38,935 bases of DNA from a virus (lineage: Duplodnaviria; Caudoviricetes): IMG/VR virus record IMGVR_UViG_3300020580_000031, positions 1-38,935 of that record; one strand, written 5' to 3'. Position numbers and translations under genes: made by a program. The notes beneath the pieces were generated by a model. That model saw only the letters and a list, made by a program, of their open reading frames with translations. It had not been told where the DNA came from and made no database searches. Positions within the stretch are counted from its first letter, which is position 1. Each line of letters begins with the position of its first letter. This document shows positions 6,501 to 38,935 of this stretch, one piece after another.

Positions 6501-6511
6501 GGCTACGCATT

Positions 6512-7135: not shown

Positions 7136-7162
7136 CCTCGCGCGCCGCGGCCCGATCTGGGG

Positions 7163-7971: not shown

Positions 7972-8067
7972 GCGGCCTGGTGTGGTGTAGCGTCACGCGT
8001 GGTGCCCCTGAAGCCAATCCCGAGGAGGCCGCGTGGGCCCGGAACTCAGCCCCGCTGAGGGAACCAG

Positions 8068-8562: not shown

Positions 8563-8575
8563 CCGGGAGTTCCAG

Positions 8576-9703: not shown

Positions 9704-10140
9704 ACGACCACACCACGCCGGAAACCATGACGCAGGTGGCGCCCTACCCGCGCGAACTCGCCAGCATCGTGGACCGCCTCTCCTACCGGGACGGGTGGAC
9801 GTTCCGTCTCGCCGACACCGACCGGGGGCAAGGCTCACGGGGATTGACGCTCGTCATCACCACCCGTGTGCCGGACAGCTACCACCCCGGACACACCATC
9901 CTCGTGGCGCATTACATGCTCGTGCCACCCGCCGCGTACAACGAGCGGTCATGGAAGTGGTGGCTGTTCGACCAGATCGGCCTTGTCGAACGCCATGAAC
10001 GCGCGGAGTTCTTCCGCATAGACGGGCAGCCGGTCACCCCACCCGCCCATGGTCCCGGGAACGATCCGTACCTGCTGCTCGACTACGGCACCGACCTGGA
10101 CCGGCGCACCCAGGCGACAGGCGCTGTCAATCCAGAGTGA
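9700..10140 (+). CDS. Hypothetical protein
   Basis: ATGA overlap; globular composition with VERHERAEFF motif. Confidence 0.7.
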   Translation: MNDHTTPETMTQVAPYPRELASIVDRLSYRDGWTFRLADTDRGQGSRGLTLVITTRVPDSYHPGHTILVAHYMLVPPAAYNERSWKWWLFDQIGLVERHERAEFFRIDGQPVTPPAHGPGNDPYLLLDYGTDLDRRTQATGAVNPE

Positions 10141-10271
10141 GCAGGCGTACCGTCACGGGCATGAACCTCTCCAACAGCAACAGCTTCGCCGCGACCCTCG
10201 ACACCATCCGCCCCGGTTCTGAACTGCCGTGGCTGTTCCGGCTGCTGACGCCTGACCAGACACGCCGCTGA
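10137..10271 (+). CDS. Small hypothetical protein (44 aa)
   Basis: GTGA overlap; translated by hand as MSRRTVTGMN...LTPDQTRR; fills the gap. Confidence 0.4.
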   Translation: MSRRTVTGMNLSNSNSFAATLDTIRPGSELPWLFRLLTPDQTRR

Positions 10272-10283
10272 GGAGGCCGCTCC

Positions 10284-10358
10284 ATGTACGTCGGGGGTGG
10301 GCTGATCGTCTTGATCCTGGTGATCATCCTGATCGTGTGGCTGATCCGCGGGGCCTGA
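10284..10358 (+). CDS. 24-aa single-TM micropeptide MYVGGGLIVLILVIILIVWLIRGA
   Basis: GAGGAGG RBS; fully hydrophobic helix; resembles small DUF3309-like bacterial membrane peptides. Confidence 0.65.
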   Translation: MYVGGGLIVLILVIILIVWLIRGA

Positions 10359-10365
10359 CCGCCGG

Positions 10366-10809
10366 TCAGGTGAACGACGCCAGCCGCAGCGCGTCACGGA
10401 CCAGGTGAGCGTGGTCGAACGCGACCCGCATTCCCCCATACGCGATTTCACGCGCCGGATGCCACCTGACGTCGGCCGCGTCATCGCCGGCCGTCGCGGT
10501 CGGCAGTTCCCCGGCGACGAGTTTCAGGTACGCCCAGCTGACCCATCGTCCCCGAGGATCACGGCCTGGGTACCCGTACACTCCGACGAGCCGCAGAAGC
10601 CCGGCGGTGAGCCCCGTTTCTTCGCGGAGCTCGCGGATCGCGGTGGCGCGCAGGTCTTCCCCCACGTCGGCCTGGCCGCCGGGCAGCGCCCACTGTCCCT
10701 GGTAGGGCTGGTAGCGGCGCTTCACGAGCAGTACCCACGGCTGGCCCTGGATCTCCCCCAGCACGATGATCTCAGCGGCCAGGTGAGCGAGTTCCGGTTC
10801 GGCTTCCAC
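10366..10809 (-). CDS. NUDIX hydrolase
   Basis: Nudix box GGQADVGEDLRATAIRELREETGL; RDPR and AFDH motifs. Confidence 0.92.
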   Translation of the reverse strand: MEAEPELAHLAAEIIVLGEIQGQPWVLLVKRRYQPYQGQWALPGGQADVGEDLRATAIRELREETGLTAGLLRLVGVYGYPGRDPRGRWVSWAYLKLVAGELPTATAGDDAADVRWHPAREIAYGGMRVAFDHAHLVRDALRLASFT

Positions 10810-10820
10810 GGATGTGTCTC

Positions 10821-11405
10821 CTAGCGGCCGAGGGCGAGCAGGATGACGCTGCCCAGCGCGGCAAGGGCGGCGAGGGGCTGGACCACCACATACTCGCTGC
10901 CGCGCCGCAGATGATGGTGGACGCGGCCCTGGTTCCGGCGGCGCTTCCGGCGGGTCTTACCGCCTGTCGTCACCCGGAGGAACCGGGGCAGCAACGCGAA
11001 ATGGACCATTGACCAGGGCCACAGCAGCGGGCAGCCTTCCTTCGTCAGCATGTCCATGACCGTGTGGTTGACGAATCCGAGGATGAGCGCCCAGGCGATC
11101 CACATGGGCCAGTGCGCCGCCTGGACGGCGAGCGCCGCGCCGCCGGCGAACAAGGCGATCCCGAGGAGGCTGTGGGTGATTTTCCGGTGGCCGCCGCAGG
11201 ACTTCCTGATCCCCCAGGAGACGATGCCGGTGACGTAGCCGAGGGACCGGGACGCTTCGCTGCGTTTGGAGTCGATGTCGTTGCAGACCGCGGCGAGGCC
11301 GCAGATCGCCGCGCCGCCGAACGCGGCCGCTGGGCGCAGGTGAAGGTAGGCGCTGGTGGCGAGCCACCCCGCGGCGCCGCACAAGCTGTGCGTATGACCC
11401 ATCAC
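10821..11405 (-). CDS. Membrane metal-dependent hydrolase (YdjM/DUF457-like)
   Basis: GHTH, DID, GHRKITHSL, HTVMDMLT..G.PLLWP motifs and TM helices. Confidence 0.85.
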   Translation of the reverse strand: MMGHTHSLCGAAGWLATSAYLHLRPAAAFGGAAICGLAAVCNDIDSKRSEASRSLGYVTGIVSWGIRKSCGGHRKITHSLLGIALFAGGAALAVQAAHWPMWIAWALILGFVNHTVMDMLTKEGCPLLWPWSMVHFALLPRFLRVTTGGKTRRKRRRNQGRVHHHLRRGSEYVVVQPLAALAALGSVILLALGR

Positions 11406-11447
11406 CTTGGGTGCCTCCGGGTGTGGTGGTTGGCGGTCACCGCGAGC

Positions 11448-11684
11448 TTATGTAGAAACGTCCCCGTGGTCAACCACGGGCTGAGCCCGCCCCGCGTGGT
11501 AAGCATCCCAGTCCAGCGGCGACGTCAGCGAAACCCAGTGAGGCCGGTTCCCGGCGGCTTTCGCCGCGGTGAACGCCTCCCGGGCTGCTTCCTTGTTCCG
11601 GAAGGGGCCCGTGACGCCGAGGACACAGTCGCCTCCCTCATACTCCTCGCAGCCGTCGGTGAGCTCCACCACGACGCCCGGCAT
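11448..11684 (-). CDS. Hypothetical protein
   Basis: Coupled to the upstream stop (TGATG) within the leftward operon. Confidence 0.55.
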   Translation of the reverse strand: MPGVVVELTDGCEEYEGGDCVLGVTGPFRNKEAAREAFTAAKAAGNRPHWVSLTSPLDWDAYHAGRAQPVVDHGDVST

Positions 11685-12172
11685 CAGCTGCCGCCTGACG
11701 TGCCCGCCGGGCCTGGTGGCGGCTGATCCGGCTCGTCAGGGCCATGTGTGGGCTGATAACAGCGAGCGCGTTCGTCAGCGCGGATCAGCGGCTCCACGGC
11801 CGTGAGGACCGCGCGGGCGACCCGGGCGACGCCGCGGCCGATGACTTTCAGGTCGCCGCTGACCGCGGCTTGCTCAGCGATGCCCGCGGCGAACGGGCGG
11901 GCCGCTGCCCCGGCGGCGTCCCAGATGGCCTGGGTGGCCGTGGGTGCCCCGGGGTCGCGCTGTGGCGTGCCGGTGTGTACTTCGACACCGTCAAGGAGCG
12001 GCACCACATTCAGGAGCCGTTCGTCGCCGTAATGCTCGACGTGGCCTTTAAGTTCGCGGCCGGCCTGGGCGTCGATTACGATGCGGCGGATCCCGGAGCC
12101 ATCACCCAGGCCAAGAGCGTCGGCGACGGCCCGGCCGAACACCTCACCCATGATCACCCTTGGCTGGTTCAC
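11684..12172 (-). CDS. Hypothetical protein
   Basis: GTG at 12172 overlaps the trigger factor stop (GTGA); begins MNQPRVIMGEVF. Confidence 0.6.
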   Translation of the reverse strand: MNQPRVIMGEVFGRAVADALGLGDGSGIRRIVIDAQAGRELKGHVEHYGDERLLNVVPLLDGVEVHTGTPQRDPGAPTATQAIWDAAGAAARPFAAGIAEQAAVSGDLKVIGRGVARVARAVLTAVEPLIRADERARCYQPTHGPDEPDQPPPGPAGTSGGS

Positions 12173-13509
12173 TGGGCCTCCCTGAGCGCGGTGACGTCGA
12201 CGGGGACGCCGGCGGTGTCGTGGACGGTGACCTGAGACGCGAGCCACGCCAGGGCTTTGCCCCGGAGCACCTCCACGGCGAACGCCGCCTCCTGGTGATA
12301 CGCGGTGACTTCGGACAGGAAATCGCCGGGGTCGACACCCGCTTCGGTGGCTTTCGCCGAGACGAACGCCGCGACTTCCTCCCCGTCGGTGGTGAGCCCA
12401 GCGACCTCGGCGACCTGGTCGAGAAGCAGCCCGGTCCGCACCGACTTCTCCGCCTCCGCCATTACCTCACCGCCGAGGTCAGCGGCGCCGGGCAGCCGCG
12501 CTCCGGCGATGTCGCTGGACACCCCACCGGTTCCGGGCTGGCGCCGCAGGAGACGTTCCCGCTGTTCCACCGCCGTCGTGACGGCCGACTCAGGCAACGG
12601 GAAATCGGTCACGGCGAGGACCGCGTCGACAGCGCGCTGGCTGGCCTGCTCAGCCTGGCGGGCGCGTTTCGCCGCGGCCAGGTCCCGGGTGATGGTTTCG
12701 CGCCACGCGGTGAGGGTGTCGTGTTCGCTGGCGTCCGCGGCGAACTTGTCGCCGAGTTCGGGGAGGACCTTGACGGCGACCCGGCCGACGGTGACTTTGA
12801 TGTCGGCTTCCCGCCCGGCGTGGGAGCCGCCGAGGAGCTTGTCCCGGACCATGGTCACGTCGCCGGCGCTGAGGCCGGTGAGGGCGGTGTCGAGGGACGC
12901 GAACAGGGTTCCGGCGCCCACCATGTAGGACACCTGCGTCACCTGCGCGTCGCTGACGAGCTCGCCGCCGGCTGACGCGGACATGCTCAGCGTCACGTAG
13001 TCGCTGGCGCTGGCGGGGCGGTGGACGGGTTCGAGCCACGCGAACCGTTCCCGCATCTCCGCCAGGAACTCATCCACCTCCCCGCCGGTGACCTCAGCGG
13101 TGTCGACTGTGACTTCCAGGCCGCTGAAATCGGGGAGGGTGATCTCGGGGCGGACATCAACGTCGGCGGTGAACACCACATGGGCTTCATCGACGACGGT
13201 GGTGACGTCAAGGTCCGGGTCACCAAGAACACGTAGGCCGGCGTCTTTCACCGCCGCCCGGTACAGGTCCGGCAGCACCTGCCGCAGCGCCTGCTGGATC
13301 ACCGTCTTCCGGCCGACACGGCGGTCGATCAGCCTCGGGGGGGCGTGCCCCGGGCGGAACCCGGGGACCATGACCTGTTTCGCGGCGTCCCGGTACGCGG
13401 CCGCCAGTGGTTCCCGCAGATAGCTGAACGGCACGTCCACGGTCAGTCGGACACGGGTCGCGGACAGTGGCTCCACGCCGGTGGACAACGTGGCCAGTGT
13501 GGCCGTCAT
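12169..13509 (-). CDS. tig: Trigger factor homologue (ribosome-associated chaperone / PPIase), 446 aa
   Basis: VEPLSATRVRLTVDVPF, VPGFRPGHAP (GFRxGxxP signature), FTADVDVRPEITLPDFSGLEVTVD, VKVLPELGDKFAADASEHDTL and EVLRGKAL match actinobacterial trigger factor; AAGGA RBS and ATGA overlap at 13506-13509. Confidence 0.93.
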   Translation of the reverse strand: MTATLATLSTGVEPLSATRVRLTVDVPFSYLREPLAAAYRDAAKQVMVPGFRPGHAPPRLIDRRVGRKTVIQQALRQVLPDLYRAAVKDAGLRVLGDPDLDVTTVVDEAHVVFTADVDVRPEITLPDFSGLEVTVDTAEVTGGEVDEFLAEMRERFAWLEPVHRPASASDYVTLSMSASAGGELVSDAQVTQVSYMVGAGTLFASLDTALTGLSAGDVTMVRDKLLGGSHAGREADIKVTVGRVAVKVLPELGDKFAADASEHDTLTAWRETITRDLAAAKRARQAEQASQRAVDAVLAVTDFPLPESAVTTAVEQRERLLRRQPGTGGVSSDIAGARLPGAADLGGEVMAEAEKSVRTGLLLDQVAEVAGLTTDGEEVAAFVSAKATEAGVDPGDFLSEVTAYHQEAAFAVEVLRGKALAWLASQVTVHDTAGVPVDVTALREAQ

Positions 13510-13811
13510 CGGAGTCCTTTCTGGCCGAAGAACACACGGGCGCCCAGGCGGAGCCGTTTCCCGGTGCCGTGGCATCGGCCGCAGTGGCCGAACGCGTACG
13601 TCCACACCTTCGAATGCAGCCGGTTGCTCCCACCGCAGCGGCCGCAGCGGAGGAACGGCCGCCGGCGGACGTCGAACAGGTAATAGGCGCCCAGTGCCCC
13701 GTCGGCCAGGACCGCCCACCCGATGGCGGCCAGGCTGTGGCTGGCGGCCGCGAGGACGAAAAGGATCAGGGCGGCCAGCGCGAGACTCCGGCCAGGGCTG
13801 CGGTCACTCAC
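13506..13811 (-). CDS. Small membrane protein with a DnaJ-type CxxCxG zinc ribbon
   Basis: N-terminal TM region then CGRCGG..CGRCHGTGKRLRLG; this type is common next to FtsK/TraB genes on actinomycete mobile elements. Confidence 0.7.
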   Translation of the reverse strand: MSDRSPGRSLALAALILFVLAAASHSLAAIGWAVLADGALGAYYLFDVRRRPFLRCGRCGGSNRLHSKVWTYAFGHCGRCHGTGKRLRLGARVFFGQKGLR

Positions 13812-14835: not shown

Positions 14836-15099
14836 TCATGACCTGTGCCTGCCCGGGCGCCCGCGGGAGCCCACGTACGCGCCGCCGAACGCCACCACGT
14901 ACAAGCCGGCGAGTTCGGCGTAGTGGCGGGGTGTCATGGGGGACCAGAGGTTGGCGGTGGCGAGGAACACCACCGCCAGTCCGATGGTCAGCGCCCACGA
15001 GTGGCGCCGCAGCCACGGCACCACGACGGCCCGGTGAGGCGCCAGGACCGTGGACGCCTTCAAGGGGATGATCTCGGTCTTCTCCGGGTCAGGCCGCAC
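14836..15099 (-). CDS. Small two-TM membrane protein (Spd-like)
   Basis: GGAG RBS and GTG 15099 overlapping the traB end; two hydrophobic helices. Confidence 0.65.
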   Translation of the reverse strand: MRPDPEKTEIIPLKASTVLAPHRAVVVPWLRRHSWALTIGLAVVFLATANLWSPMTPRHYAELAGLYVVAFGGAYVGSRGRPGRHRS

Positions 15100-17017
15100 T
15101 CTGGATCTCCCATGTCCACGGGCTGGTGCCCCGCTGCCGCAGGACCCCGTCACGTTCGAACTCGGCGAGGACGTCATACAGCCACGGCCTCGACCGGCCG
15201 GTCCGTTCACGCACCGCGGAGAGCTCGGGGATGCCGAAGGTGGTCTGGCCTTTCAGCCGCCACTCGTTCAGCTGGCGGCGGACCACGTCGCGGGCGGTGG
15301 CGGCGTCCATCGGCTCACTGGCCGGCGCGTCGCCGCCGAACTTCCACGCGCCGAACGGTGTGTCTTCGTCCACTTCGATGTCGGCCACGGGTTCATCATC
15401 TCCTTCGGCCACCTCGGGTGGTTCGACCACGTGGAGGGTGGCCGGGTGTGTGGTGGCCGGTGCTGTGGCCACAGTAGCCGGCCGGGGGTTTTCAGCCGGG
15501 AACACTGGAGCGGCCGCCAGATCAGCCAGCGCGGCCGCTGTCACATGGTCGAGTGGACGGTCGGTGGCTGGCCACTCGGCGGCGTGGGCGGCGATCAGGT
15601 GGCTGTCGTCACCCCAGAAGAACGCCCGCCACGGCATGATCCGCCGGTCGTCCGGGATCGACGGGGCGTCGATGTAGGCCATCCCCGGCTGGCTCGAACC
15701 CCAGTGCTCCGGGCTGCAGCCGGCGTCGGCCTGGCGGGCGGACAGGCCGAAGCTGGCGTCCTGGTCGTCGAGGACACCGAAGCAGGTCTTGGCGAGCTGC
15801 CCGCGGGCGAGAGTGGGCATCTGCGTCCAGTCGGACCGCTGCAGCGACAGCACCCACCGGATCCCCGCCGACCGCCCAGCTTTGACGTCACTCAGCCACG
15901 CCTCGAGGTCGTCGTCGTCGAGGAGCGCGATGATGTCGGGGCATTCCTCCAGCCAGATCGTCAGATGTGTCAGGCCGCAGCCTTCCCGCCACGACGGCAG
16001 GTGCTGGGTGGCGAGGTAGTCAGTGCGGGCCCGCACCAGCGGATGCAGGGCCCGCAGCCGGGCCCGCGCCTCCTCCGGGGTGGTTTCCAGGCAATGCAGG
16101 GCGGGCCGCAGCGGACCGAGGAACTGCTCACCCTTGGTGATGTCGAACGCCAGCACCGCCGCGTCATAGCGGGTGACCGTCTCCGCGATCTCACACCACC
16201 CCATCGACATGGTCTTGCCAACGCCGGTGGCGCCCATCACCTGGTTGTGGTGGTTGACCACCCGGTAGTCCATGGGCTCGGAGTCCTGCCACAAACCGAG
16301 CCGCACCGGTTCCGCGATCGACGCCCCCGGCCGCGACGGCCCCGGCCACGGCACCGGGGTTTTCAGCACGCGGGGGTCGGAGAACACGACGTGGGAGCGG
16401 CCGGCGTGGTCCTCATGCGGGCTGACGGTGATCGACTTCGGGGGCAGGCCCATCGCCGATTCCAGGTTCGGGGCGCGTTTGATCAGGTCCGCGGTGACCC
16501 CACCGGGTGGGTGCTGGACGACGGCGTGAGTCTTGCGGCCGGCCAGCTTGACCGACAGGACCTTGGCGCCTTCGAGGCTGGCGGGTTTCGCGGCGCGGCC
16601 GAACAGGTGATGCACACCGGCTTCGTCGCCGCCCTCATGGATGTGAACCCACATCGACCACCCGAACGCGACGACCATGCCGCCGATGAACCACACCCCC
16701 ACCACCACCCGGGTCAGCCCAGCCGCCTCCGCGGTGGCGAGCCACCCGAACGCGAGCAGGACCGTGACCGCGGCGAGGTAACGGCCGAGGCCTTCGCGGT
16801 GACGGGTCAGATGCGCCGCCAAGACGGACAGGACGAGGCCGCCGGACCCGACACACGCGGCGGCTTCCCACTGCGGCCACGCCAGCCGCAGCAGCAGGCC
16901 GCCGGTGAGGGTCGCGATCCACGCCAGCCACGGTGGCGCCACGACGACGACACGGGACAGTTCCCCGGCGGCGACACGCTCCAGGGTGTGGTTCTCATGG
17001 TCGCGGCTCCGCGCCAT
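15089..17017 (-). CDS. traB: TraB-type FtsK/SpoIIIE conjugative DNA translocase
   Basis: N-terminal TM helices, Walker A GATGVGKT, Walker B IWLEE, GRSAGIRWVLSLQR, C-terminal wHTH (GRSRPWLY): the architecture of Streptomyces plasmid TraB. Confidence 0.9.
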   Translation of the reverse strand: MARSRDHENHTLERVAAGELSRVVVVAPPWLAWIATLTGGLLLRLAWPQWEAAACVGSGGLVLSVLAAHLTRHREGLGRYLAAVTVLLAFGWLATAEAAGLTRVVVGVWFIGGMVVAFGWSMWVHIHEGGDEAGVHHLFGRAAKPASLEGAKVLSVKLAGRKTHAVVQHPPGGVTADLIKRAPNLESAMGLPPKSITVSPHEDHAGRSHVVFSDPRVLKTPVPWPGPSRPGASIAEPVRLGLWQDSEPMDYRVVNHHNQVMGATGVGKTMSMGWCEIAETVTRYDAAVLAFDITKGEQFLGPLRPALHCLETTPEEARARLRALHPLVRARTDYLATQHLPSWREGCGLTHLTIWLEECPDIIALLDDDDLEAWLSDVKAGRSAGIRWVLSLQRSDWTQMPTLARGQLAKTCFGVLDDQDASFGLSARQADAGCSPEHWGSSQPGMAYIDAPSIPDDRRIMPWRAFFWGDDSHLIAAHAAEWPATDRPLDHVTAAALADLAAAPVFPAENPRPATVATAPATTHPATLHVVEPPEVAEGDDEPVADIEVDEDTPFGAWKFGGDAPASEPMDAATARDVVRRQLNEWRLKGQTTFGIPELSAVRERTGRSRPWLYDVLAEFERDGVLRQRGTSPWTWEIQSAA

Positions 17018-17099
17018 CGGGGAACCCTCCGGTGATATGGGACGGCGGGAGCTGACCAGCGCCCCCGGTTTGCTTCGTTTACCGCCCGGCGTAGTTCGC

Positions 17100-17498
17100 T
17101 TACTTCGCCTTCGCGGCTGGTTTCTCGGTGAACTGCCACGTGTCGCGGGTCTTGCGGTCGGGGTTGATCACCTCGGCGTAGGTGCGGGTGTAGTCCGCCC
17201 AGAACCGGGCGGCGTTGTCACCCACCGACCGGGCGTCTTCCGCCGCTGCCCGCAGTTTGCGGACGACCCGGCGTGCCGCCATCCGCGCCTGGAAGCGGTC
17301 CATCATGCTGCCTTTCGCCTTCCCCAGGACGACCTGCAGCTCATGCGCGGTCACGTCGAGTTCGAGGGCGAAGTGATACGCGATCGCGCGCACCGACGCG
17401 GCGTAGGCGGCGACGTCGGTGGTGCCGCGCAACTCCATGTTCGACAGCGCCGCGAGGGTTTTCGCCTGCGCGCTGCCCGCGGTGATTTTCGCTGGCAT
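17100..17498 (-). CDS. TraA-like plasmid transfer protein
   Basis: Helical protein directly upstream of traB with ARMAARRVVRKLRAAAE and a terminal WQF, resembling Streptomyces plasmid TraA. Confidence 0.6.
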   Translation of the reverse strand: MPAKITAGSAQAKTLAALSNMELRGTTDVAAYAASVRAIAYHFALELDVTAHELQVVLGKAKGSMMDRFQARMAARRVVRKLRAAAEDARSVGDNAARFWADYTRTYAEVINPDRKTRDTWQFTEKPAAKAK

Positions 17499-18208
17499 CA
17501 GTGGTCCTCCTCGTTGAGGTGCCCGTTGGCCCGCGCCGCCGTGAGGATGGTCTCCGCCCGGTACGGGGTCAGGTCAAGCTCGGCGGCCAGGCCGCGCCGT
17601 GACAGGGCCTCACCGGCGGCGAGACGTTCCGCGACGGCCCTGACGGTGCCTGGGTCGGCGGGCTTGGTGCGCCGCCCGCGGGTACGCTTCCCGGCTGGGG
17701 CCGCGCTGGTCTCGGAGGGCGCCGGCGCGGCCCCAGCCGGCTTCACCACCGTGGTTTCACGCGCGTCATCCCGTGACCTGGGCTTACGCGCCGCCGTGGT
17801 GCTCTTGGCACCCGAGGTGGCCTTCACCAGGCCCAGCAGCACCCCCAGGGACACCGTCGCGGCGAGCGGCGGCACCGCCGCGGTGACCTGGTCGCCGAGG
17901 GGAGCGGTGAACCCGACATGGCCGACGTTGCCCCCGATGGAAGCGGCCAGGCCCGCCGCGGTGACCAGCCAGCAGCGTGCCTTGACCGCGGTGGCAGCGC
18001 CGTCGACGGCGGCGATGAACAGCCGCACCTCCCCGACGACGACGAACGTGTCGATCATCACGGGGAAACCCCACGCCCACGCGCCGTCGCGGTGGCTGAA
18101 CGCCCACGCCAGCAAACCGTGGAACGACTGCGCGAAACTGTCAGCGGTCGCGATGACGGTGAGGACGGCGATCACCCACGGCGCGGCGCGGCGCGCGAAT
18201 GGCAGCAT
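17498..18208 (-). CDS. DUF2637 / SpdA-like membrane protein with C-terminal HTH
   Basis: SFAQSFHGL, AWGFPVMID, ASIGGNVGH and AVPPLA motifs; C-terminal LSRRGLAAELDL. Confidence 0.8.
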   Translation of the reverse strand: MLPFARRAAPWVIAVLTVIATADSFAQSFHGLLAWAFSHRDGAWAWGFPVMIDTFVVVGEVRLFIAAVDGAATAVKARCWLVTAAGLAASIGGNVGHVGFTAPLGDQVTAAVPPLAATVSLGVLLGLVKATSGAKSTTAARKPRSRDDARETTVVKPAGAAPAPSETSAAPAGKRTRGRRTKPADPGTVRAVAERLAAGEALSRRGLAAELDLTPYRAETILTAARANGHLNEEDH

Positions 18209-18789: not shown

Positions 18790-19310
18790 TGAGCTTGGTC
18801 GGCCAACTTCCCGGAGAGCTGGGCTCAGGGCAGGGGACGGCCAGCGAACCGGCCGTCCTCACCTTCCCGTCGTCTTAGGGACATGGTTTAGGTGTGACGC
18901 CCCAGCGCGCTACTGCTGGGGAAGGGCGCCTTGTGATCACGGTCTAGTTGGTGGTTCACCAGCGGGCCCTGCCTGCGCTGGCCTGATCGTGTCTCGCCGA
19001 TACGATGCCTCGGTCTTCCGGGCTGTCGCGGGAGCTCGTCATTCCCGCGTGCGGTGGCACACCGGCTCTGATACGGCTCCAGCGGGGCCGTAACCCGGGA
19101 ACGGCCCGGGCGACTAGCCGGGCAGTCAGACCAGAGCGGGAGATGTAGAAACCCGGCTTGTAGAAAAGCCGGCCTCACGTGTATTCTCAGCACTGGTTGT
19201 CGAGACCACACGCAGCATCGCACGAGCCCGGTGTCCGCCGCAAGGCGTCCCGGGCTCTTGTGTTCCGGAAACTGCTGTTGTGTTCCCGGTCGGAACACTT
19301 TGGGAGACCG
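18790..19310. ncRNA. Hairpin-dense non-coding interval; candidate structured RNA(s) or single-strand origin
   Basis: At least eight inverted repeats and no convincing ORF; not matched to any RNA family I recognise. Confidence 0.35.
19158..19187 (+). promoter_or_regulatory. Putative sigma-70-type promoter overlapping a TGTAGAAA motif
   Basis: TTGTAG-18 bp-TATTCT; a second motif copy lies at 19143-19152. Confidence 0.5.
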
Positions 19311-19628
19311 ATGAGCAGGCACACCAGGCGGTGGCACGGCCACACCTCGGAGCAGGTCGCTGACCACGCCTGGGCTAACCTGACCTGCCCCAAGTGCGGT
19401 TCAGAGCCGAAGTCGGCGTGTGTGCCGCTGCCGGAGCCGCCGCGGACCGTGTGCAAGGAACGCTGGGTCGCCGCGGTCATCGAGCTGAAGAACGCGGCCA
19501 GGGCCAGCCGGCCGTCGCGGGAAGCCGCGGAGGCGTCGGCGCGGCTTGATCTGGCCACGGAACGCGGCTGCTTCATGAGCGACGTGCCGGCCGCTGACGT
19601 GGCTGAACGGCTTCGCGCGTCCCGCTGA
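19311..19628 (+). CDS. Zinc-finger-like protein
   Basis: GGGAG RBS; CPKCGSEPKSAC..C motif. Confidence 0.6.
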   Translation: MSRHTRRWHGHTSEQVADHAWANLTCPKCGSEPKSACVPLPEPPRTVCKERWVAAVIELKNAARASRPSREAAEASARLDLATERGCFMSDVPAADVAERLRASR

Positions 19629-19646
19629 AACCAGGCCCAGACGAGG

Positions 19647-19690
19647 GCCAGCCCCGGGCGAGGGTCGGTGCCCGGGGCTGGCGTGTTTCG
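19647..19690 (+). terminator. Intrinsic terminator-like hairpin
   Basis: 13-bp perfect stem GCCAGCCCCGGGC/GCCCGGGGCTGGC followed by GTGTTTC. Confidence 0.55.
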
Positions 19691-19816
19691 GGGAAGTAAC
19701 GGGCAAGCGTCAGCGGGCCTGCTATTTTCCCGAGAGTTAAGGCGCACGCGGCCCCGCGTTCCCCTGCCAAAGGTTTCCCCGGGCCACGGGCGCGTGATCC
19801 CAACGGAAGGATACGC

Positions 19817-20545
19817 GTGCTGAAACGCTACGCGCGGGCGTCCGCCCTGATCGTCACGGCGATCTCAGCGGCCGCGATTCTCGCCACACCAGCCGCCTCG
19901 GCCGCGACTTTGCGGAATCCCGAAGGCGGCCCTGTCATCTCTGGGAACATCACGTGGACCGCTGCCCCGGCGGGCCGCTGGTATGTGGTGCGGAGGGGTG
20001 ATGACCTGTTCGGTATCGCCCGCCGCCTGGATGGTTCGGGTGGATGGTGGCCTCAGCTGTGGGCCCAGAACAGGAAGATCATCCCTGACGCGCTCGCCAT
20101 CCCCGTCGGGGCGCGGTTGTGGATCGGGCCGAAATGGCGGCACATGCCGGGGGTGCCGGAGCGGTTCGAGCCGAAGCCGGCACCGCCAGCACCTGCGCCC
20201 GCCGCGGCTCCCGCGGCTGTGTCTGTCGCGCCCGCTCCCGCCGCGCCAGCCCCGGCCGCTCCGCCGGCGCTGGACAGCAACGGTGGCGTCGTCTCATACG
20301 CCGGGCTCGAGCAACTGTGGATCGGTGCTGGCGGCCCGGCTGGTGTCGCGGCGGAGGCGGCGACCATCGCCGAGTGTGAGAGCGGCGGGGACCCGGCCGC
20401 GTACAACCCGTCCGGTGCGTCGGGTCTCTGGGAGATCCTGGGGACACCGTTCCCCGGGAACCCGTTCGACCCGGGCACCAACGCTGCGATGGCGGTGGCG
20501 AAGTACAACGGCGCGGGAGGCAACTTCTCGCCGTGGGTCTGCTGA
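19817..20545 (+). CDS. Secreted LysM plus lytic transglycosylase (SLT/Rpf-like) protein
   Basis: Signal peptide, YVVRRGDDLFGIA..LWAQN LysM, Pro/Ala linker, IAECESGG..ASGLWEI..FDPGTNAAMA..FSPW lysozyme-like domain. Confidence 0.88.
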   Translation: MLKRYARASALIVTAISAAAILATPAASAATLRNPEGGPVISGNITWTAAPAGRWYVVRRGDDLFGIARRLDGSGGWWPQLWAQNRKIIPDALAIPVGARLWIGPKWRHMPGVPERFEPKPAPPAPAPAAAPAAVSVAPAPAAPAPAAPPALDSNGGVVSYAGLEQLWIGAGGPAGVAAEAATIAECESGGDPAAYNPSGASGLWEILGTPFPGNPFDPGTNAAMAVAKYNGAGGNFSPWVC

Positions 20546-32549: not shown

Positions 32550-32915
32550 GTGAACAAGGGTGAGACAGCGGAACTGCTCGCGATGGTGGCGGCGTTCGAC
32601 CGCCGCACGGTCGGCGCCGCGGATGTCGAGGCGTGGCATTCCATCCTCGGCCTCTACCGCGCTGGCGACACGGTGGCGGCGCTGAAGCAGTTCAAGCACG
32701 ACGAACCTGGCATCTGGGTCGAGCCGGGTCACCTGGCGCAGATCATCGACGAGTGGCAGCGGCAGTGGCTGTGGCGCGTCGGCGCCGGGAAACCGATGCC
32801 CATCGGCGGCCGGGAGGCGGATGAGGACCTGGTGATCGTCACCGAGCATGGGCCGGTGCCGCTGCTCGAGCACAAACGCCAGCAGGCCGCCCGCCAGCTT
32901 GAGGCCGGCGAGTGA
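32550..32915 (+). CDS. Helicase loader/inhibitor-like protein
   Basis: ETAELLAMVAAFDRRTVGAADVEAWHSIL; lies between initiator and helicase. Confidence 0.65.
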   Translation: MNKGETAELLAMVAAFDRRTVGAADVEAWHSILGLYRAGDTVAALKQFKHDEPGIWVEPGHLAQIIDEWQRQWLWRVGAGKPMPIGGREADEDLVIVTEHGPVPLLEHKRQQAARQLEAGE

Positions 32916-34201
32916 CCACCACGTCCGCGCCGCCGCAGGATCTTCAGGCGGAGCGGTACACCCTGGCTGGCATGTTCGCCGGGCCGCGTGGGGTGGAGGC
33001 GGCGGCGGGGATCCTCACCGCCGGTGATTTCCTGCGCCCGGCCCATCAGGTGATCTTTCAGGCGATGGTGTCGATGTACGCCGCGGGGACGCAGGTGACG
33101 GTGGTCACGCTGAAGGACTGGATCACCCGTGATGGCGACGCGAAGGTGTTCGGCGGTGAGGCGCGCTGCGGGGAGTACCTGCTGGAGCTGTACGCGCTGC
33201 CAGCGTTCGGGGTGGAATCTCACGCCCGCCTGGTGCTGGACCGGGCGGTGCGCCGCCGGGTCGCGGAGGCGGCGACGCGGATGCTGCAGCGCGTCGCGGG
33301 CAACGGCCACGACCCGATCGGTGACTTCGTCGCGGGCTGCCAGGACGACATCGACCGCGCCGCCGCGACCGCGTCGGCGCTTGATGGTGACGCTGACGAG
33401 GCGATGACCGCCGAGCGGTTCGTCGCGTCCCCCCGCGCGCAGCCGGTGCCGGTGATCCCGGGCCTGCTGAACCGGGAGGACCGCGTCGTCGTCGTTGGCC
33501 GCCCGGGCAGCGGCAAGACGTATCTGGCGTATCAGATCGCGGCGGCGTGCGCGGCGGGGGTGCATCCGTTCGCGTGGACCCCGATGCGGCCACTGCGGGC
33601 GATGATCATCGACTTGGAGAATCCGCGCTACCTGGTGCGGTCGAAGATGAACAAGCTCCTCGCCGTCGCCAAACGCCACGAGGGCTACGATCCGGACGCG
33701 CTGCGGGTGTTCTCCCACCCGGCGGGCCTGGACCTGTCGAAACCAGGTAACGCGCATCTGCTGGCGTCGCGGATCCGGCAGGCGCGGCCGGAGGTGATCT
33801 GCGCGGGCCCGATCTACAAGATGCACGCCGACATCGGGGAACGCGCCGACCACACGGCGGTGACGGATTTCTGGGACCGCATCCGTGACCGCTACGGGTG
33901 CGCGCTATGGCTGGAAACACATCCGCCGCTGGTGATCGGGTCGGCGAGGAACGTGCCGATGCGGCCGGGTGGTTCGGGGCGGTGGTCGAACTGGCCCGAG
34001 TTTGGGCTGTCGCTGCTCCCGGCGGGGAAAGGCGAGCCGGAGGGGGCGCTGCTGATCGACACGTTCCGCGGCGACCGTGAGGAGGGCCGCACCTGGCCGA
34101 GGAAGCTCCACCGCAACGTCATGTCAGCGCAAGGCTGGCCGTGGGTGCCCGTCTACCCGGACGGCACCCTGAGCGACCCACTGGAGGAAGATCATGCCTA
34201 A
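32912..34201 (+). CDS. DnaB-like replicative helicase (DnaB N-terminus plus RecA-type ATPase)
   Basis: PPQDLQAE..DFLRPAHQVIF N-terminal domain; Walker A GRPGSGKT; IIDLEN; LWLETH. Confidence 0.9.
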   Translation: MTTTSAPPQDLQAERYTLAGMFAGPRGVEAAAGILTAGDFLRPAHQVIFQAMVSMYAAGTQVTVVTLKDWITRDGDAKVFGGEARCGEYLLELYALPAFGVESHARLVLDRAVRRRVAEAATRMLQRVAGNGHDPIGDFVAGCQDDIDRAAATASALDGDADEAMTAERFVASPRAQPVPVIPGLLNREDRVVVVGRPGSGKTYLAYQIAAACAAGVHPFAWTPMRPLRAMIIDLENPRYLVRSKMNKLLAVAKRHEGYDPDALRVFSHPAGLDLSKPGNAHLLASRIRQARPEVICAGPIYKMHADIGERADHTAVTDFWDRIRDRYGCALWLETHPPLVIGSARNVPMRPGGSGRWSNWPEFGLSLLPAGKGEPEGALLIDTFRGDREEGRTWPRKLHRNVMSAQGWPWVPVYPDGTLSDPLEEDHA

Positions 34202-34670
34202 CCACCACAAGCACGGCAGCCGCTGCTCACACCCGTCCGCGGACGTGATCCTGCATGGCTGCGCTGAGAACATCCGCCATGTCGGCTGGCACGCCACGGG
34301 TGTCCTCGCGAACCCGCCGTTCACCTACACGACGGGCCTGACCGAAACCCACGGGCACCCGGAACTGGTGATCGCTGGCGTGGATTCCGGGATGGCGCAC
34401 CCGATCCTGGTCACCGCCGTCAAGATGATCGAGGATGGCGGCCGGTTCACCCCGGGTGACCGCCCGGAGGAGCTGATCACCGGCTACCCGATGCTCGTCG
34501 CGGAGGTTCCGGCGGCGTACCGGGAGCCGTTCAGCTTCGGTGTGTCCACCGCCCATTACGGGCGGGAGGTGCCGCACCTGCAGCTGATGTGGCCCGACCC
34601 CGAAGGCCGGTTCCCGGGTAAGGCCGGCTGTGACGAAGACATGGCCGGGGCTCAGTTGATGGCCCAGTGA
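34194..34670 (+). CDS. DUF4262-like protein
   Basis: GW..V..PPFTYTTGL..GHPELVIAG..LQLMWPDPEGRFP. Confidence 0.8.
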   Translation: MPNHHKHGSRCSHPSADVILHGCAENIRHVGWHATGVLANPPFTYTTGLTETHGHPELVIAGVDSGMAHPILVTAVKMIEDGGRFTPGDRPEELITGYPMLVAEVPAAYREPFSFGVSTAHYGREVPHLQLMWPDPEGRFPGKAGCDEDMAGAQLMAQ

Positions 34671-35203
34671 GTTCGGGCGCTGTGGGGCGGGTGCCCGTGG
34701 CTTACGCGGGCGTCCGGTTCCGGTCAACGCTGGAAGCCGACTGGGCGGTGACGCTCGACGGGCTGAATGTCATCTGGCAGTACGAGCCCGAGGCGGTGCG
34801 GCTGCCGTCGGGGACGCTGTACCGCCCGGACTTTTACTTGCCGAAGATCGCTACCTGGCTGGAAGTCAAGGGGCCGTCGGTGGGCGGTCTGGACAAAACC
34901 CGCGAACTCGCCGAGGCAGTGTCGCACTTCCCGGACTGCCCGGCGCGTGGCCGTGGTGATTGCGAATGCACGGGCGAATACGAACTGGTGGTTGTTGGCT
35001 TGGCGCCGACGCTCGGTCGCCTCACCTGGGAACTGGTCGGTGACGACACGGGGACGTTCCAGCGTTGTTTTAACTGCGGGTCCTGGTGGTGGTGCGGATC
35101 GGTGTCGCTTGGTTGCCGGGCACACCGCCGCTTCCGCGGTGGGGACGACGACCTGGGTGATGACACCGTTCCGGAGTTCAGGCGAAGCGGCGGCCGCAGG
35201 TGA
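34667..35203 (+). CDS. PD-(D/E)xK nuclease-like protein
   Basis: YAGVRFRSTLEADWA..WQYEPE..YRPDFYLP..WLEVKG. Confidence 0.8.
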   Translation: MSSGAVGRVPVAYAGVRFRSTLEADWAVTLDGLNVIWQYEPEAVRLPSGTLYRPDFYLPKIATWLEVKGPSVGGLDKTRELAEAVSHFPDCPARGRGDCECTGEYELVVVGLAPTLGRLTWELVGDDTGTFQRCFNCGSWWWCGSVSLGCRAHRRFRGGDDDLGDDTVPEFRRSGGRR

Positions 35204-35730
35204 GTCCGGGGTTCCGGTTCACGGTGGCGGGCCGTCCGGCGCCGCAGGGCTCCAAGGACGTCATCCCGCTCAAGACCGCCGGTGAGTTCAATGGCCGGTT
35301 CAGCCTGGTGGAGAAGTCGAAGTACCTGAAGGCGTGGCGGGAAGCGGTCGAGGCGGCGGCGCGGGTGGCGTCGTTTGGGCAGCCGGCTTTGGATGGGCCC
35401 CTGTGGGCGTCGATGGTGTTCACTTTGGCGCGGCCAGCGGCGCATTTCCGGACGGGTGTCCACGCGGATCGGCTGCGGGATGACGCGCCGGAGTGGCCGG
35501 AGGATGTCCCCGATTTGAGCAAGCTCGTCCGCGCGACCGAGGACGCTTTGGTGACCGCTGGGGCGATCCGGGATGACGCGCGGATCGTGCGGTTCGCGGA
35601 CGTGGCGAAGACGTACCCGGGTGGGCCGCATCGGTGGGCGCTGGCCCGCCCGGGCGCGGTGATCGAAGTGGGATGTGTGGTGAGACCCGGCCAGCTGGCT
35701 TTGCCGGTGACCGGGGCGGCGGATGTGTAG
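35200..35730 (+). CDS. rusA: RusA-like Holliday junction resolvase
   Basis: GRPAPQGSK, WREAV, PDLSKLVRATEDAL..IRDDARIV. Confidence 0.88.
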   Translation: MSPGFRFTVAGRPAPQGSKDVIPLKTAGEFNGRFSLVEKSKYLKAWREAVEAAARVASFGQPALDGPLWASMVFTLARPAAHFRTGVHADRLRDDAPEWPEDVPDLSKLVRATEDALVTAGAIRDDARIVRFADVAKTYPGGPHRWALARPGAVIEVGCVVRPGQLALPVTGAADV

Positions 35731-35759
35731 CATGACCGAGCGGAAGGGATGTAGAAACC

Positions 35760-36146
35760 ATGGCTGCTGACAAGGGTGACCTCGTGACGCTGGCGGGCAC
35801 CATGCCGCCCAGTAACACGAACGCGCTGCGGACGTACGCGAAGGATCTGATGGCGGATCCGACGAAGTGCCGCCTGATCGTCGCGATGATCGACGTGGTG
35901 AAGACCGTCACCGACCACGACAAGGGCGTCGCGTACCCGGTGGTGCGGCTCCGCCATGTGGAGCTCGTCACGTCCGACAACATCGCGGTGGCGAGTGAGA
36001 TCCTCGGCGGGGAACTCGCGGCGCGGACGGGCGCGGAGCAGCTGCCGTTCGAGCATGGCCAGGTCGCCGACGACTTCGCCGAGGGGCGCCCCGAGGACAT
36101 GGACGAGGTCGGCGGCGACGCCCCGCCGCGGCTGGGCATCGTCTGA
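35760..36146 (+). CDS. Hypothetical protein
   Basis: ARTGAEQLPF motif seen in actinophage proteins; a TGTAGAAAC motif directly precedes the ATG. Confidence 0.7.
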   Translation: MAADKGDLVTLAGTMPPSNTNALRTYAKDLMADPTKCRLIVAMIDVVKTVTDHDKGVAYPVVRLRHVELVTSDNIAVASEILGGELAARTGAEQLPFEHGQVADDFAEGRPEDMDEVGGDAPPRLGIV

Positions 36147-36430
36147 TGGGTGCTTTCATGTCGCCGGTCGCTGGGCGCCCCGCAGAGACCGCCGTGGCCC
36201 ACTACACGGGGATGAGCGCGTCCGACGGTGAGAACTGGCGTGTTCACGCGGATGAGGTCCGCGACGTCAACGGCGACCTGGCCGTGGCGCGTGCTGACCG
36301 CCCGTCGGCGACGCTGCGCCGTGTTGGGTGGCTTGACCAGAAGGGGCGGGTGTGGACACGCACACCGGCTTCGTCCGGGTTCGACGGCGGCTCCCTGACG
36401 CCGCTGCTGATCGACGTTCGGGAGGACTGA
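36146..36430 (+). CDS. Hypothetical protein
   Basis: TGATG coupling. Confidence 0.55.
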   Translation: MGAFMSPVAGRPAETAVAHYTGMSASDGENWRVHADEVRDVNGDLAVARADRPSATLRRVGWLDQKGRVWTRTPASSGFDGGSLTPLLIDVRED

Positions 36431-36433
36431 GAC

Positions 36434-36613
36434 GTGGCGCAGTCACGGGAACTGGCGCAGGAAACCGCGGCGATGCAGACGATGGAACGGGTCCTGTCGG
36501 CCCTGCCGGAGCCAGCGCGGCGACGGGTGATCGCGTGGACGATCGACGTGTACTCGGCGGGTGGGCAGGCGGCCGAGAACGGGCAGGCCCCGGTTGCTGG
36601 TGAGGACGCGTGA
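36434..36613 (+). CDS. Small helical protein (59 aa), missing from the ORF track
   Basis: GGAGGA RBS; MAQSRELAQETAAMQTMERVLSALPEPARRRVIAW...; GTGA overlap with the next gene. Confidence 0.65.
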   Translation: MAQSRELAQETAAMQTMERVLSALPEPARRRVIAWTIDVYSAGGQAAENGQAPVAGEDA

Positions 36614-37560
36614 GCGGGCAGCGTGCGCCTGGCGCGTACGGCCGCCGGCCACCGTCGCGGAAGCCAGCGGTTCAGCTGGCCCCCCTGCTGACTGGTGTGG
36701 TCCCAGCGCATCCGGTGGCCGCGGATTACCTCGCCGCGCTGGATGGTGGCTGGCAGATGCTCGGCAACGACACCGTGGGTGATTGCGCCGCGGTTTCGTG
36801 GGCCAATAACCGGAGACTGGTCACGGCTGCCCTGACCGGCACGGCCCGCTACCCGGATCTGGCCATGGTCTACAGCGTCTACGCTTCGCAAAACCCAGGG
36901 TTCGACCCCAACGGTGATCCGGCGGTAGACGGCCCAGGCAGTCCCGCGGACGGCGGGATGGACCTGCAGACGCTGCTGGAGTACCTGACGAAGACCGGCG
37001 GCCCCGACGGTGTCAAGGCGGTCGGGTTCGCGCAGGTCAACCCTGCCCGCACCGCTGAGGTCAAGGCGGCGATCGCCCTGTTCGGGTCGCTGCTGACGGG
37101 GATCACCGTCCTCGATGTCAACGAGCAGGAGTTCGCCGCGGGCCAGCCGTGGTCATGGGATCCGTCGGCGCAGGCCGCTGGCGGCCACGCGGTCCTCACC
37201 GGCGGCTACGGGCCGCCCGGCCCCGGCCCGCTGGGGGGCGATGAGCGGTTCGTGACCTGGGCCGCTGAGACGAGTTTCGATGACTCGTTCTGGGCCAGTG
37301 CGGTTGAGGAAGCGTGGGTGGTGATCTGGCCGGAGATGCTTGGGTCGCTGGAGTTCATGCAGGGTGTGGACATGGCCCAGTTCGCCTCCGACTACCAGGT
37401 GATCACGGGCCGCCCGTTCCCGTACGTGGTGCCGCCCAGCCCCGCCCCGGTGCCTGGGCCCTCTCCGGCGCCCGCTCAGGGTCTGCTGGGGGAGCTGGCG
37501 TCGCTGGTCCGCACCGACGCTCAGGCGGCCATCTCCTGGCTTGATTCGCATGGTCTCTGA
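36610..37560 (+). CDS. Papain-like (C1-type) cysteine peptidase
   Basis: MLGNDTVGDC (Cys), GGHAVLTGGY (His), FVTW, VEEAWV. Confidence 0.75.
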   Translation: MSGQRAPGAYGRRPPSRKPAVQLAPLLTGVVPAHPVAADYLAALDGGWQMLGNDTVGDCAAVSWANNRRLVTAALTGTARYPDLAMVYSVYASQNPGFDPNGDPAVDGPGSPADGGMDLQTLLEYLTKTGGPDGVKAVGFAQVNPARTAEVKAAIALFGSLLTGITVLDVNEQEFAAGQPWSWDPSAQAAGGHAVLTGGYGPPGPGPLGGDERFVTWAAETSFDDSFWASAVEEAWVVIWPEMLGSLEFMQGVDMAQFASDYQVITGRPFPYVVPPSPAPVPGPSPAPAQGLLGELASLVRTDAQAAISWLDSHGL

Positions 37561-37912
37561 GGACGCCCGGTTCGGCGAGTGGGCGATCGTGGAGCTGATG
37601 GGCCGCCGCCGTGTCGGCGGGCGCGTGTCGTCGGACCAGGGTTCCCTAGCCGAGTCAACGTATCTGCGGGTGGACGTGCATGGCCTGACTGGCCCGCCGG
37701 TGATGACACAGTTCCTGCCGTGGCCGCAGGCGTTCTACTGCCTCACCATCACCGATGAGGAAACCGCGCGGGCTGTCGGCGCGATGTCGGGTGGGTCGGC
37801 TCCGGTGGCCCGGTGGGAACTTGAACGGCCGGCGCCGCGTGGCACCCCAACGTATGGCCCACCGGATGGTGAGGTATGGGTTGATGGCCCCGAAGAGGTG
37901 AACGTCCCGTGA
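37550..37912 (+). CDS. Phage hypothetical protein
   Basis: WAIVELMGRRRVGGRV..LRVDV..TQF..AFY..DEETARA. Confidence 0.65.
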   Translation: MVSEDARFGEWAIVELMGRRRVGGRVSSDQGSLAESTYLRVDVHGLTGPPVMTQFLPWPQAFYCLTITDEETARAVGAMSGGSAPVARWELERPAPRGTPTYGPPDGEVWVDGPEEVNVP

Positions 37913-38076
37913 AACTCAGCGAGCCGGTGGTTTCGGTGGTCTCCGATCTTCGTGAGGTGCCGTTCGGGGAGCTGCCCGCCCTGGACGAGGCGACCCTCGG
38001 TGAGACGCTGCGCCGGGTGATCCCGGATAGCGCGCCGGTCACTGTGCCGGTGGCGGCGTTCCAGTCGGCCCTTTGA
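37909..38076 (+). CDS. FxSxx-COOH (FxsA-like) cyclophane RiPP precursor peptide, 55 aa, missing from the ORF track
   Basis: MKLSEPVVSVVSDLREVPFGELPALDEATLGETLRRVIPDSAPVTVPVAAFQSAL*: DL..V...EL..L....L...LRRV leader and terminal AFQSAL; GAGGTG RBS and GTGA overlap. Confidence 0.85.
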   Translation: MKLSEPVVSVVSDLREVPFGELPALDEATLGETLRRVIPDSAPVTVPVAAFQSAL

Positions 38077-38089
38077 GGATGGAGACGCC

Positions 38090-38248
38090 GTGAAGGCTTC
38101 TGACCTGTTCCGCTGGCTGCTGATCGTCGTCGCGCTGATCCTGGCTGGGGTGGCGTGGCTGTCCGCTGTTCATGTGATCCACGGGGCGCCGGTGTGGGTG
38201 CTGCCATCAGCGGTGCTGGCGATCATCGTGGCCGTCGCGATTCCGTGA
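38090..38248 (+). CDS. 52-aa two-TM membrane protein
   Basis: GGAG RBS; MKASDLFRWLLIVVALILAGVAWL..VWVLPSAVLAIIVAVAIP. Confidence 0.65.
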   Translation: MKASDLFRWLLIVVALILAGVAWLSAVHVIHGAPVWVLPSAVLAIIVAVAIP

Positions 38249-38254
38249 CCACGA

Positions 38255-38283
38255 TTGCTCTTTTCTACTTTTCTACATACACT
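38255..38283 (+). promoter_or_regulatory. Sigma-70-type promoter, twin of the one at 20688
   Basis: TTGCTC-TTTTCTACTTTTCTACA-TACACT. Confidence 0.8.
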
Positions 38284-38322
38284 GGGGGGGGACAACCACC
38301 ACCACCCGGAAGGAAAGCCCAC

Positions 38323-38935
38323 ATGGCTCCTGACGCGCCAGCCATTCCCCTCACCGCCCGGTTCGCCGGGCTCGACAAAATCGCGAAGATCCTCTCCGAA
38401 CAGCAGGGCCGCAAGCTCGACGTGGTCGCGAACGCCGCCGCGATGCGGTTCGAAGGCACCCAGCTGATCGTCAACGGTGTCGAAGCTGAGATCACCGACG
38501 ACGGGGTTCAGACGGTCGACGGGATCTACCAGCCGACCGAGGTGTTCGACGAGGGCCTGGCTGAGAAGCTGGGTGTGCCCCGCGCCTACGTCCGCCGGAT
38601 GCGGAACGAGGCACCGGACCTGTACGACGCCAACGCCAACGGCTGGCTCCACGGCCACGAGGTGCCCGTCCCGGACGCGTCCGGGAACACGATGGACGTC
38701 AAGGTCATCCGCGAGCCGGACACCCGGAAGTTCATGCTGCGGCTGTTCCGCGGCGACGACGGCGTGGGTGTGGGCCGGGCGATGCTGTCCGACTCTTACC
38801 GGACCACGATGGACCATCTCGACGTCCTCACCGCCGCTTTGCAGGGTGTTCAGGACTCCGGTGCCGACGCCCACGTCACCACCTGTGACCTGTCGGAGCG
38901 GCGGATGACGGTCACGCTGGAGGCTCCGGGGGTGC
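38323..38935 (+). CDS. DUF932/DUF945-like protein, 3'-truncated
   Basis: GAAGGAAA RBS; open to the window end; RKLDVV..FDEGLAEKLGVPRAYVRRMR..YDANANGWL..GRAMLSDSY..CDLSERRM. Confidence 0.75.
   Translation, partial: MAPDAPAIPLTARFAGLDKIAKILSEQQGRKLDVVANAAAMRFEGTQLIVNGVEAEITDDGVQTVDGIYQPTEVFDEGLAEKLGVPRAYVRRMRNEAPDLYDANANGWLHGHEVPVPDASGNTMDVKVIREPDTRKFMLRLFRGDDGVGVGRAMLSDSYRTTMDHLDVLTAALQGVQDSGADAHVTTCDLSERRMTVTLEAPGV

Follow-up and report, generated by a model that had tools for sequence, protein, structure and literature searches.

Orphan FxsA-type RiPP precursor genes in actinophages, with a possible role as host-matured anti-defence peptides

The stretch of DNA analysed here (the window) comprises all 38,935 nucleotides of IMG/VR virus record IMGVR_UViG_3300020580_000031 (Duplodnaviria; Caudoviricetes). 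It comes from a soil actinophage with 69% GC and an estimated completeness of 32% by CheckV, and carries a minor tail gene, a GH25 endolysin, a cro-like repressor, annealing and exonuclease genes, a DnaB-like helicase and a RusA. In a co-directional gene run after dnaB and rusA lies a 55-aa ORF that a preliminary description, made from the sequence alone, had read as a translationally coupled FxSxx-COOH precursor gene (Table 1). That the ORF is real is supported by its GC contents at the three codon positions (0.77/0.46/0.82, a coding pattern), and the coupling by the overlap of its GTG start codon with the upstream TGA and by the Shine-Dalgarno-like sequence before it. A scan of 35000-38935 for promoters of the sigma-70 consensus only found none. 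Positions 34000-38935 are covered without differences by one Logan contig, which may be the window's own source.

Table 1. Features at and around the fxsA-like gene of the window.
Feature	Position	Strand	Basis
fxsA-like gene, 55-aa FxSxx-COOH precursor, FxsBH-linked subtype	37909..38076	+	ORF, TIGR04268, subtype models
Leader part covered by family model (DLREVPF...LRRVIP)	37945..38043	+	TIGR04268 match and alignment
C-terminal VPVAAFQSAL and stop	38044..38076	+	Translation; F-Q-S is the motif presumed to be cross-linked
Shine-Dalgarno-like GAGGTGA, 7 nt upstream of GTG	37895..37901	+	Sequence
Upstream phage ORF, phrog_29525, function not assigned; stop overlaps fxsA start (GTGA)	37541..37912	+	ORF, PHROG
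Next ORF downstream, hydrophobic, 52 aa; no family match, not an Fxs gene	38090..38248	+	ORF, family searches
Replication genes, from a DnaB-like helicase to a RusA-like resolvase; co-directional with fxsA	32912..35730	+	Pfam/PHROG

Both the family assignment and the AAFQSAL C-terminus given in the preliminary description are confirmed: the peptide matches the FxSxx-COOH model TIGR04268 at 42.2 bits (curated cut-off 28, E 6.5e-11, residues 13-55), and FQSAL followed by the stop forms an F-x-S-x-x end at the true C-terminus of the protein. The cross-link would presumably join Phe to Ser within F-Q-S. Compared with 60 codon shuffles of the window, the bare motif F-x-S-x-x-stop is no more frequent than expected by chance (1 in the window, mean 1.4 in the shuffles); the longer motif AAF[NQ]S[AS][ILV]-stop does exceed chance (1 versus 0), as does the TIGR04268 match. 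The leader agrees with the majority of bacterial cluster copies at its D, L, R, V, P, L, R and P positions and has a single L-to-F change, at a position occupied by L in 98% of those copies. The peptide does not belong to the SjiA subfamily (NF040585, 14.5 bits against a cut-off of 75), and has no Pfam or PHROG match.

The partners expected of such a gene were not found. In the window, the radical SAM model PF04055 gave 0 matches at E<=1, the FxsB model TIGR04269 0 and the FxsT model NF040586 0, and the three CxxxCxxC strings in its six frames are all without a radical SAM match, in keeping with the earlier observation that no maturase is visible in 39 kb. The phage setting noted at the same time is equally upheld, by PHROG matches of the neighbours (phrog_29525, for example) and the viral record itself; no neighbour of fxsA in the window matches any Fxs model. 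A complete fxs RiPP cluster is not present, the ORF directly downstream being the 52-aa hydrophobic one rather than fxsB, and fxsC and fxsT being absent from the locus. Since the window is only 32% complete, its orphan status applies to 39 kb out of a genome estimated at ~120 kb. No integrase was found in a scan of 58 ORFs, and the window has no tRNA genes.

Several other genes of the window deserve mention. A trigger factor homologue at 12169-13719 (-) (Pfam Trigger_N and Trigger_C, phrog_26774) is 38-47% identical to bacterial copies, and no relative of it was found in viral contigs. A three-gene module at 15089-18208 (-), consisting of a 642-aa membrane protein (phrog_24831), phrog_38590 and phrog_733, bears a resemblance to the TraB/FtsK transfer modules of actinomycete plasmids; a Pfam search gave no confirming match. 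Further cargo includes a PLD-family protein at 5949-6500 (+), a Nudix hydrolase with a YdjM membrane protein at 10366-11405 (-) and a LysM plus transglycosylase protein at 19817-20545 (+). The phrog_19005 protein at 36610-37560 (+), in the replication region, looks to us papain-like (GDC...H motif), and adjoins the endolysin in prophage L067. It was considered as a cognate leader protease, being near fxsA in that prophage too, and rejected: it occurs in only 2/24 viral carriers, lies ~50 kb from fxsA in G019, and has no solved relative.

In actinomycetes, the family is known from fxsA-fxsBH-fxsC-fxsT loci (TIGR04268, NF040585, TIGR04269, TIGR04267, NF040588, TIGR04276, NF040586), with which the window peptide shares its leader pattern and its F-x-S-x-x end. 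The window gene differs from these in being phage-encoded and in having no fxsB, fxsC or fxsT beside it. The closest bacterial copies, at 51-57% identity, are in uncultured Streptosporangiaceae-type MAGs, and directly precede a fused FxsBH (TIGR04269 plus TIGR04267), followed by FxsC, a TIR protein, and FxsT, a ParA-TIR-NB-ARC-TPR protein. Of 38 genome loci examined, 34 contain an FxsB-type CxxxCxxC ORF; two of the other four are frameshifted clusters (L025 and L031), one ends ~490 bases past the gene (L044), and one is a prophage (L040). Metagenome relatives are directly before fxsB in 60 of 79 loci (80 kept of 87, minus the window itself), 14 are not, and 5 loci end too soon. Three of the 14 repeat viral loci already counted and one looks like a bacterial duplicate; among the remaining 10, 8 have a PHROG match among the neighbours tested.

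The window peptide belongs to the FxsA subtype found immediately upstream of a fused FxsBH in bacteria: it scores 53 bits on models of FxsBH-type (long) FxsA and 32 on the short-FxsB-type model. The 130 above-cut-off FxsB matches in 151 genomes were split into 40 "long" (521 bits and more) and 90 "short", a few of the latter having long open frames; 3 FxsB and 8 FxsC rows below cut-off were dropped. Above-cut-off fxsC genes lie within 6 kb of 37/40 long FxsB genes (two of the others are at contig ends) and within 10 kb of 0/90 short ones. Counted from the side of fxsC, 44/54 fxsC genes are near a long fxsB, and long fxsB is present in 37 of the 39 fxsC-bearing genomes. Two observations speak against a strict split: certain fxsC genes below cut-off lie near short fxsB, and Kitasatospora short-type loci have FxsT relatives.

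FxsB is above cut-off in 79/151 genomes of the candidate host family. The phage trigger factor scores best against four of the Streptosporangiaceae-type MAGs (44-47%), compared with 38-42% for named Streptosporangium, Microbispora, Kitasatospora, Streptomyces and Micromonospora genomes, suggesting that the host may be an uncultured Streptosporangiaceae-type soil actinomycete; the call is weak because the comparison covered only 24 pre-selected genomes. Relatives of DnaB, found in 1/151 genomes at 36% identity, are not informative on the host.

The bacterial loci have peculiarities of their own. Neither FxsC nor FxsT has a serious match to a PADLOC system, FxsT being matched only via its ParA part. 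Pairs of the two occur without a nearby fxsA or fxsB (L273, L276). At L271, about 5970-11840 (G158:C8), an fxsA-like gene precedes fxsC and fxsT, and fxsBH is missing from the 15 kb of the locus; to judge from its gene order, the peptide here travels with the putative immune pair in a bacterium, the one such case. The genome has fxsBH elsewhere, so that maturation in trans may also occur in bacteria. At L026, an AAC(3)-like acetyltransferase gene (12609-13433, below cut-off) separates fxsBH from fxsC, and an alpha/beta hydrolase gene (18852-19778) is convergent on fxsT, as in several other loci; possible roles for these are tailoring and leader removal.

Orphan fxsA genes are not confined to the window. 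IMG/VR was scanned three times, yielding 21 further loci, every one with an FxsA-like ORF ending in the motif; across these 22 records TIGR04268 matches at E<=0.01 in 20/22 and above cut-off in 8/22. Two more were found with a short-type pattern (1 true of 15 matches) and a leader-only pattern (1 true of 10), for 23 viral records besides the window (24 in total, with two near-duplicate pairs, L011/L021 and L017/L020). FxsB was found in 0/24 and FxsT in 0/24 of these carriers, and in 0/11 of those at least 90% complete. One possibility is that the window gene is not an orphan after all, its fxsB being on the remainder of the phage genome: the window is a partial record, and the same protein is recorded on contigs of 123,390 and 61,606 bases. 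We consider this very unlikely, given the lack of FxsB in the 23 other carriers, including the 11 most complete, and the position of bacterial copies of the subtype directly before fxsB, where the window copy is not.

Among the viral records, fxsA contexts range from coupled to free-standing. Tandem copies occur, three in L003 and two each in L004 and L017/L020, and fxsA is in or beside phage tRNA arrays in L003 (9807-10375, 10 tRNAs), L017/L020 (7432-8027, 36 tRNAs) and L018 (7860-8027, 4 tRNAs). A tRNA array is not a typical position for a lysogen moron. The suggestion that phages carry only the FxsBH subtype, as 26/26 copies score, was abandoned: the queries were of that subtype, and L139, a viral record 95% complete without FxsB, has at about 2000 (-) a true short-FxsB-type precursor ending VAGFQSSI. 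Searches of 50,697 GenBank phages with the window peptide and three more queries gave chance matches only; one, in phage Frankenweenie, was discarded as antisense to annotated genes. A plasmid search gave one match, at E 0.4.

These copies are under purifying selection. In comparisons of 36 orphan copies, each with its nearest cluster copy and its nearest other orphan, pN is below pS in 72/72 (values uncorrected, over at most 44 codons, with pS near saturation for distant pairs). Orphan L156 and cluster copy L172 are identical at 39/44 positions (pS 0.43, pN 0.05), and the window and L154 at 28/43 (pS 0.48, pN 0.22). Conservation at leader positions not covered by the search patterns is about as frequent in orphans as in clusters (D 0.74/0.80, L 0.91/0.98, R 0.89/0.93, P 0.74/0.84, for 35 orphan/95 cluster copies). 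The core F is present in 35/35 orphans and the S in 33/35, the other two having A, which is also seen in bacterial copies; the commonest orphan C-termini are the host's own. The search patterns partly build in an intact core; the only core-blind search turned up one true copy, with its core intact, in 10 matches.

Capture has happened more than once. A 130-row tree needs 21 label changes between orphan and cluster copies, of which its starred branches force only 2 (48 columns, 81/127 forks open). An AU test on 13/35 orphans and 26/95 cluster copies rejects a single orphan clade at p 1.6e-44, a value biased toward rejection because the subset was picked after nearest neighbours had been seen. 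Orphan L156 adjoins an ORF with a zincin-like SHEVLE motif (602-1294, -) that has no PHROG match.

Prophages permit comparison of phage copies with those of their actual hosts. Microbispora/Streptosporangium-type lysogens G038, G054 and G179 hold both an fxs locus and fxsA-bearing prophages, two in G038, after lysis genes, and one each in G179 and G054. For these four copies the own host's FxsBH-type FxsA ranks 6, 9, 11 and 1 of 104, with a margin of 125 versus 88 in G054; kinship of the host genomes accounts for part of this likeness. Every one of the 40 genomes with an FxsA match also belongs to the 79 with FxsB (compared by eye). Five FxsA matches are far from fxsB: two are these prophages, and of the other three, one has transposases around it, one is next to a TPR remnant and one is close to the end of a contig.

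Could such a gene be a stray piece of host DNA, carried neutrally? It is short, and bacteria also hold stray fxsA duplicates near transposases (L264). The insertion in the window is clean, however: the start codon overlaps the upstream ORF, a ribosome site is present and host DNA does not flank the gene; together with pN below pS throughout, repeated capture and tandem arrays, this makes a neutral passenger most improbable. The retention of leader and core, the pN/pS values, the lack of a single clade and the host likeness in four prophages argue instead for a selected, repeatedly captured host peptide.

Each of the four prophage copies is set apart next to lysis genes, and two run on the opposite strand, an arrangement that suits expression in a lysogen. 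A prophage precursor might thus strengthen or prime the host's defence against competing phages, or its matured peptide might be a signal of the prophage itself. Several viral copies that are not coupled to their neighbours would fit such a lysogen-side role, as would the existence of anti-phage RiPPs in actinomycetes (the lanthiphages of bioRxiv 10.1101/2024.06.26.600839, as far as covered here). The window copy, by contrast, is coupled into a replication-region run with no integrase among the ORFs scanned, and other copies are in or beside the tRNA arrays of large phages, so that we regard this role as unlikely.

FxsB is reported to form cyclophanes (PMC10114670) and Phe-motif synthases paracyclophanes (PMC11499958); the HExxH domain fused to the relative ChlBH is described as an alpha-ketoglutarate hydroxylase (PMC12636437), superseding the peptidase label of Kaur et al. 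2020 (PMC7159879). Solved structures in the PDB exist for FxsBH relatives (9gm3/9gmc, 22nu/22ob); a search there for the precursor chain found none. The sections covered of a preprint on TIR-ParA apoptosis systems (Li, Burroughs, Aravind, bioRxiv 10.64898/2026.10.19.760177) predict that FxsC and FxsT destroy NAD+ in infected cells, call both functionally uncharacterized, and list FxsAB linkage as only one variant. Together with the covered sections on peptide-processing systems in Kaur et al. 2020 (PMC7159879), they define the peptide's host locus (active TIR FxsC, ParA-TIR FxsT, FxsAB) and propose that the peptide is an antiviral or alarm signal; phage copies are not mentioned in these sections.

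The reading that we prefer, with a probability of about 0.4, is that of a host-armed anti-defence peptide. The phage would supply an intact FxsA precursor, with no maturase in the DNA at hand, which the host's FxsBH would likely cyclise in trans. The matured peptide would be an antitoxin-like "all clear", topping up a peptide that restrains the system, and the predicted FxsC-FxsT suicide system (TIR NADase/ParA-STAND-TPR) would then likely stay off during infection. A captured RiPP precursor, made into a cyclophane by a host radical SAM enzyme, would in this way hold a TIR-STAND suicide system shut, and the FxsA product would be a safety catch of NLR-like immunity, not an antibiotic. Because leader and core are kept host-like, so that the same product would be made, the phage appears to want more of the host product, not less, and a host-identical product is most easily explained if it restrains the system. 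The coupling of fxsA into the replication-region run, rather than in a place set apart, also suits an antitoxin. Against it, both comparative papers guess the opposite sign in the parts covered. The lack of a serious PADLOC match for FxsC and FxsT and the lysogen-suited position of the four prophage copies also count against it. The peptide need not be an obligatory antitoxin, since FxsC-FxsT pairs exist without nearby fxsA or fxsB and FxsAB linkage is one variant among those of the preprint.

If mature host FxsA is instead an activator or alarm, excess phage precursor might act as a competitive decoy, saturating FxsBH or sitting unmodified on the sensor, so that the alarm is not made or not read. 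The evidence of selection, host matching and partner absence would fit this equally, it agrees with the published guess of an alarm or antiviral peptide (in the sections covered of bioRxiv 10.64898/2026.10.19.760177), and the F of the window copy is at a leader position nearly invariant as L in clusters. A perfect substrate, however, feeds the pathway unless in large excess, and no core-dead copies were seen, a point weakened by patterns that favoured intact cores. Of the substrate mimic proposed in the preliminary description, the link to a host Fxs system stands, through subtype, selection and host matching; pure titration fares less well, being somewhat less likely than an antitoxin because the phage copies retain the core of the host peptide, from which the same product would result. 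We consider the decoy unlikely, if the least so of the alternatives; with the antitoxin reading it makes an anti-defence role of some kind somewhat more probable than the converse. A further possibility is that the Fxs locus is not anti-phage at all, and that the peptide occupies another host partner, for instance in FxsBH-dependent development or signalling. The immune role of FxsC and FxsT is, after all, a prediction for two proteins that the preprint calls uncharacterized in the sections covered; the TIR and ParA-TIR-NB-ARC-TPR architectures of the two and the repeated capture of the peptide by unrelated phages make this quite unlikely.

The window fxsA is an orphan phage copy of part of a host locus whose defensive role is a published prediction, and has parallels in this. 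In the parts of the sources covered, AdfN against DarTG1 (PMC11825919) and the pseudo-ToxI of PhiTE against ToxIN (PMC3475682) are likewise phage orphan copies of a small part of a host defence, and the tandem fxsA genes recall the expansion of the pseudo-ToxI antitoxin mimics in repeats (PMC3475682). In these same sources, AdfN is an enzyme and pseudo-ToxI an RNA, both with demonstrated activity against the defences, whereas FxsA is a RiPP precursor whose maturation would depend on a radical SAM enzyme of the host, and here both the defence and the counter-defence are putative. The lanthiphage lanthipeptides of Actinobacteria (bioRxiv 10.1101/2024.06.26.600839, in part) provide an earlier example of a RiPP with an intracellular role in phage defence; they differ in their chemistry and in being host-encoded as whole clusters, and phages there escape by mutation of a GNAT gene rather than with a precursor copy. 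No report of phage-borne FxsA was found in a literature search in which subscription papers were mostly out of scope; supplements of the two comparative papers may list phage cases. By these comparisons, the orphan FxsA of phages would be a new form of phage mimicry of host defence parts: the gene is real, selected and recurrent, with a putative function.

The chemistry of FxsB-type enzymes has been published, the role of their peptides has not, and the neighbouring TIR and STAND-TPR genes are predicted immune genes only. Host-matched, selected, precursor-only copies in unrelated phages are independent evidence for the fxs locus as a battleground between phage and host. If the antitoxin reading is true, it would add a new mode of counter-defence, in which a phage peptide is matured by the host, and would give a natural function to a RiPP class as widespread as its enzyme's presence in more than half of the candidate-family genomes indicates.
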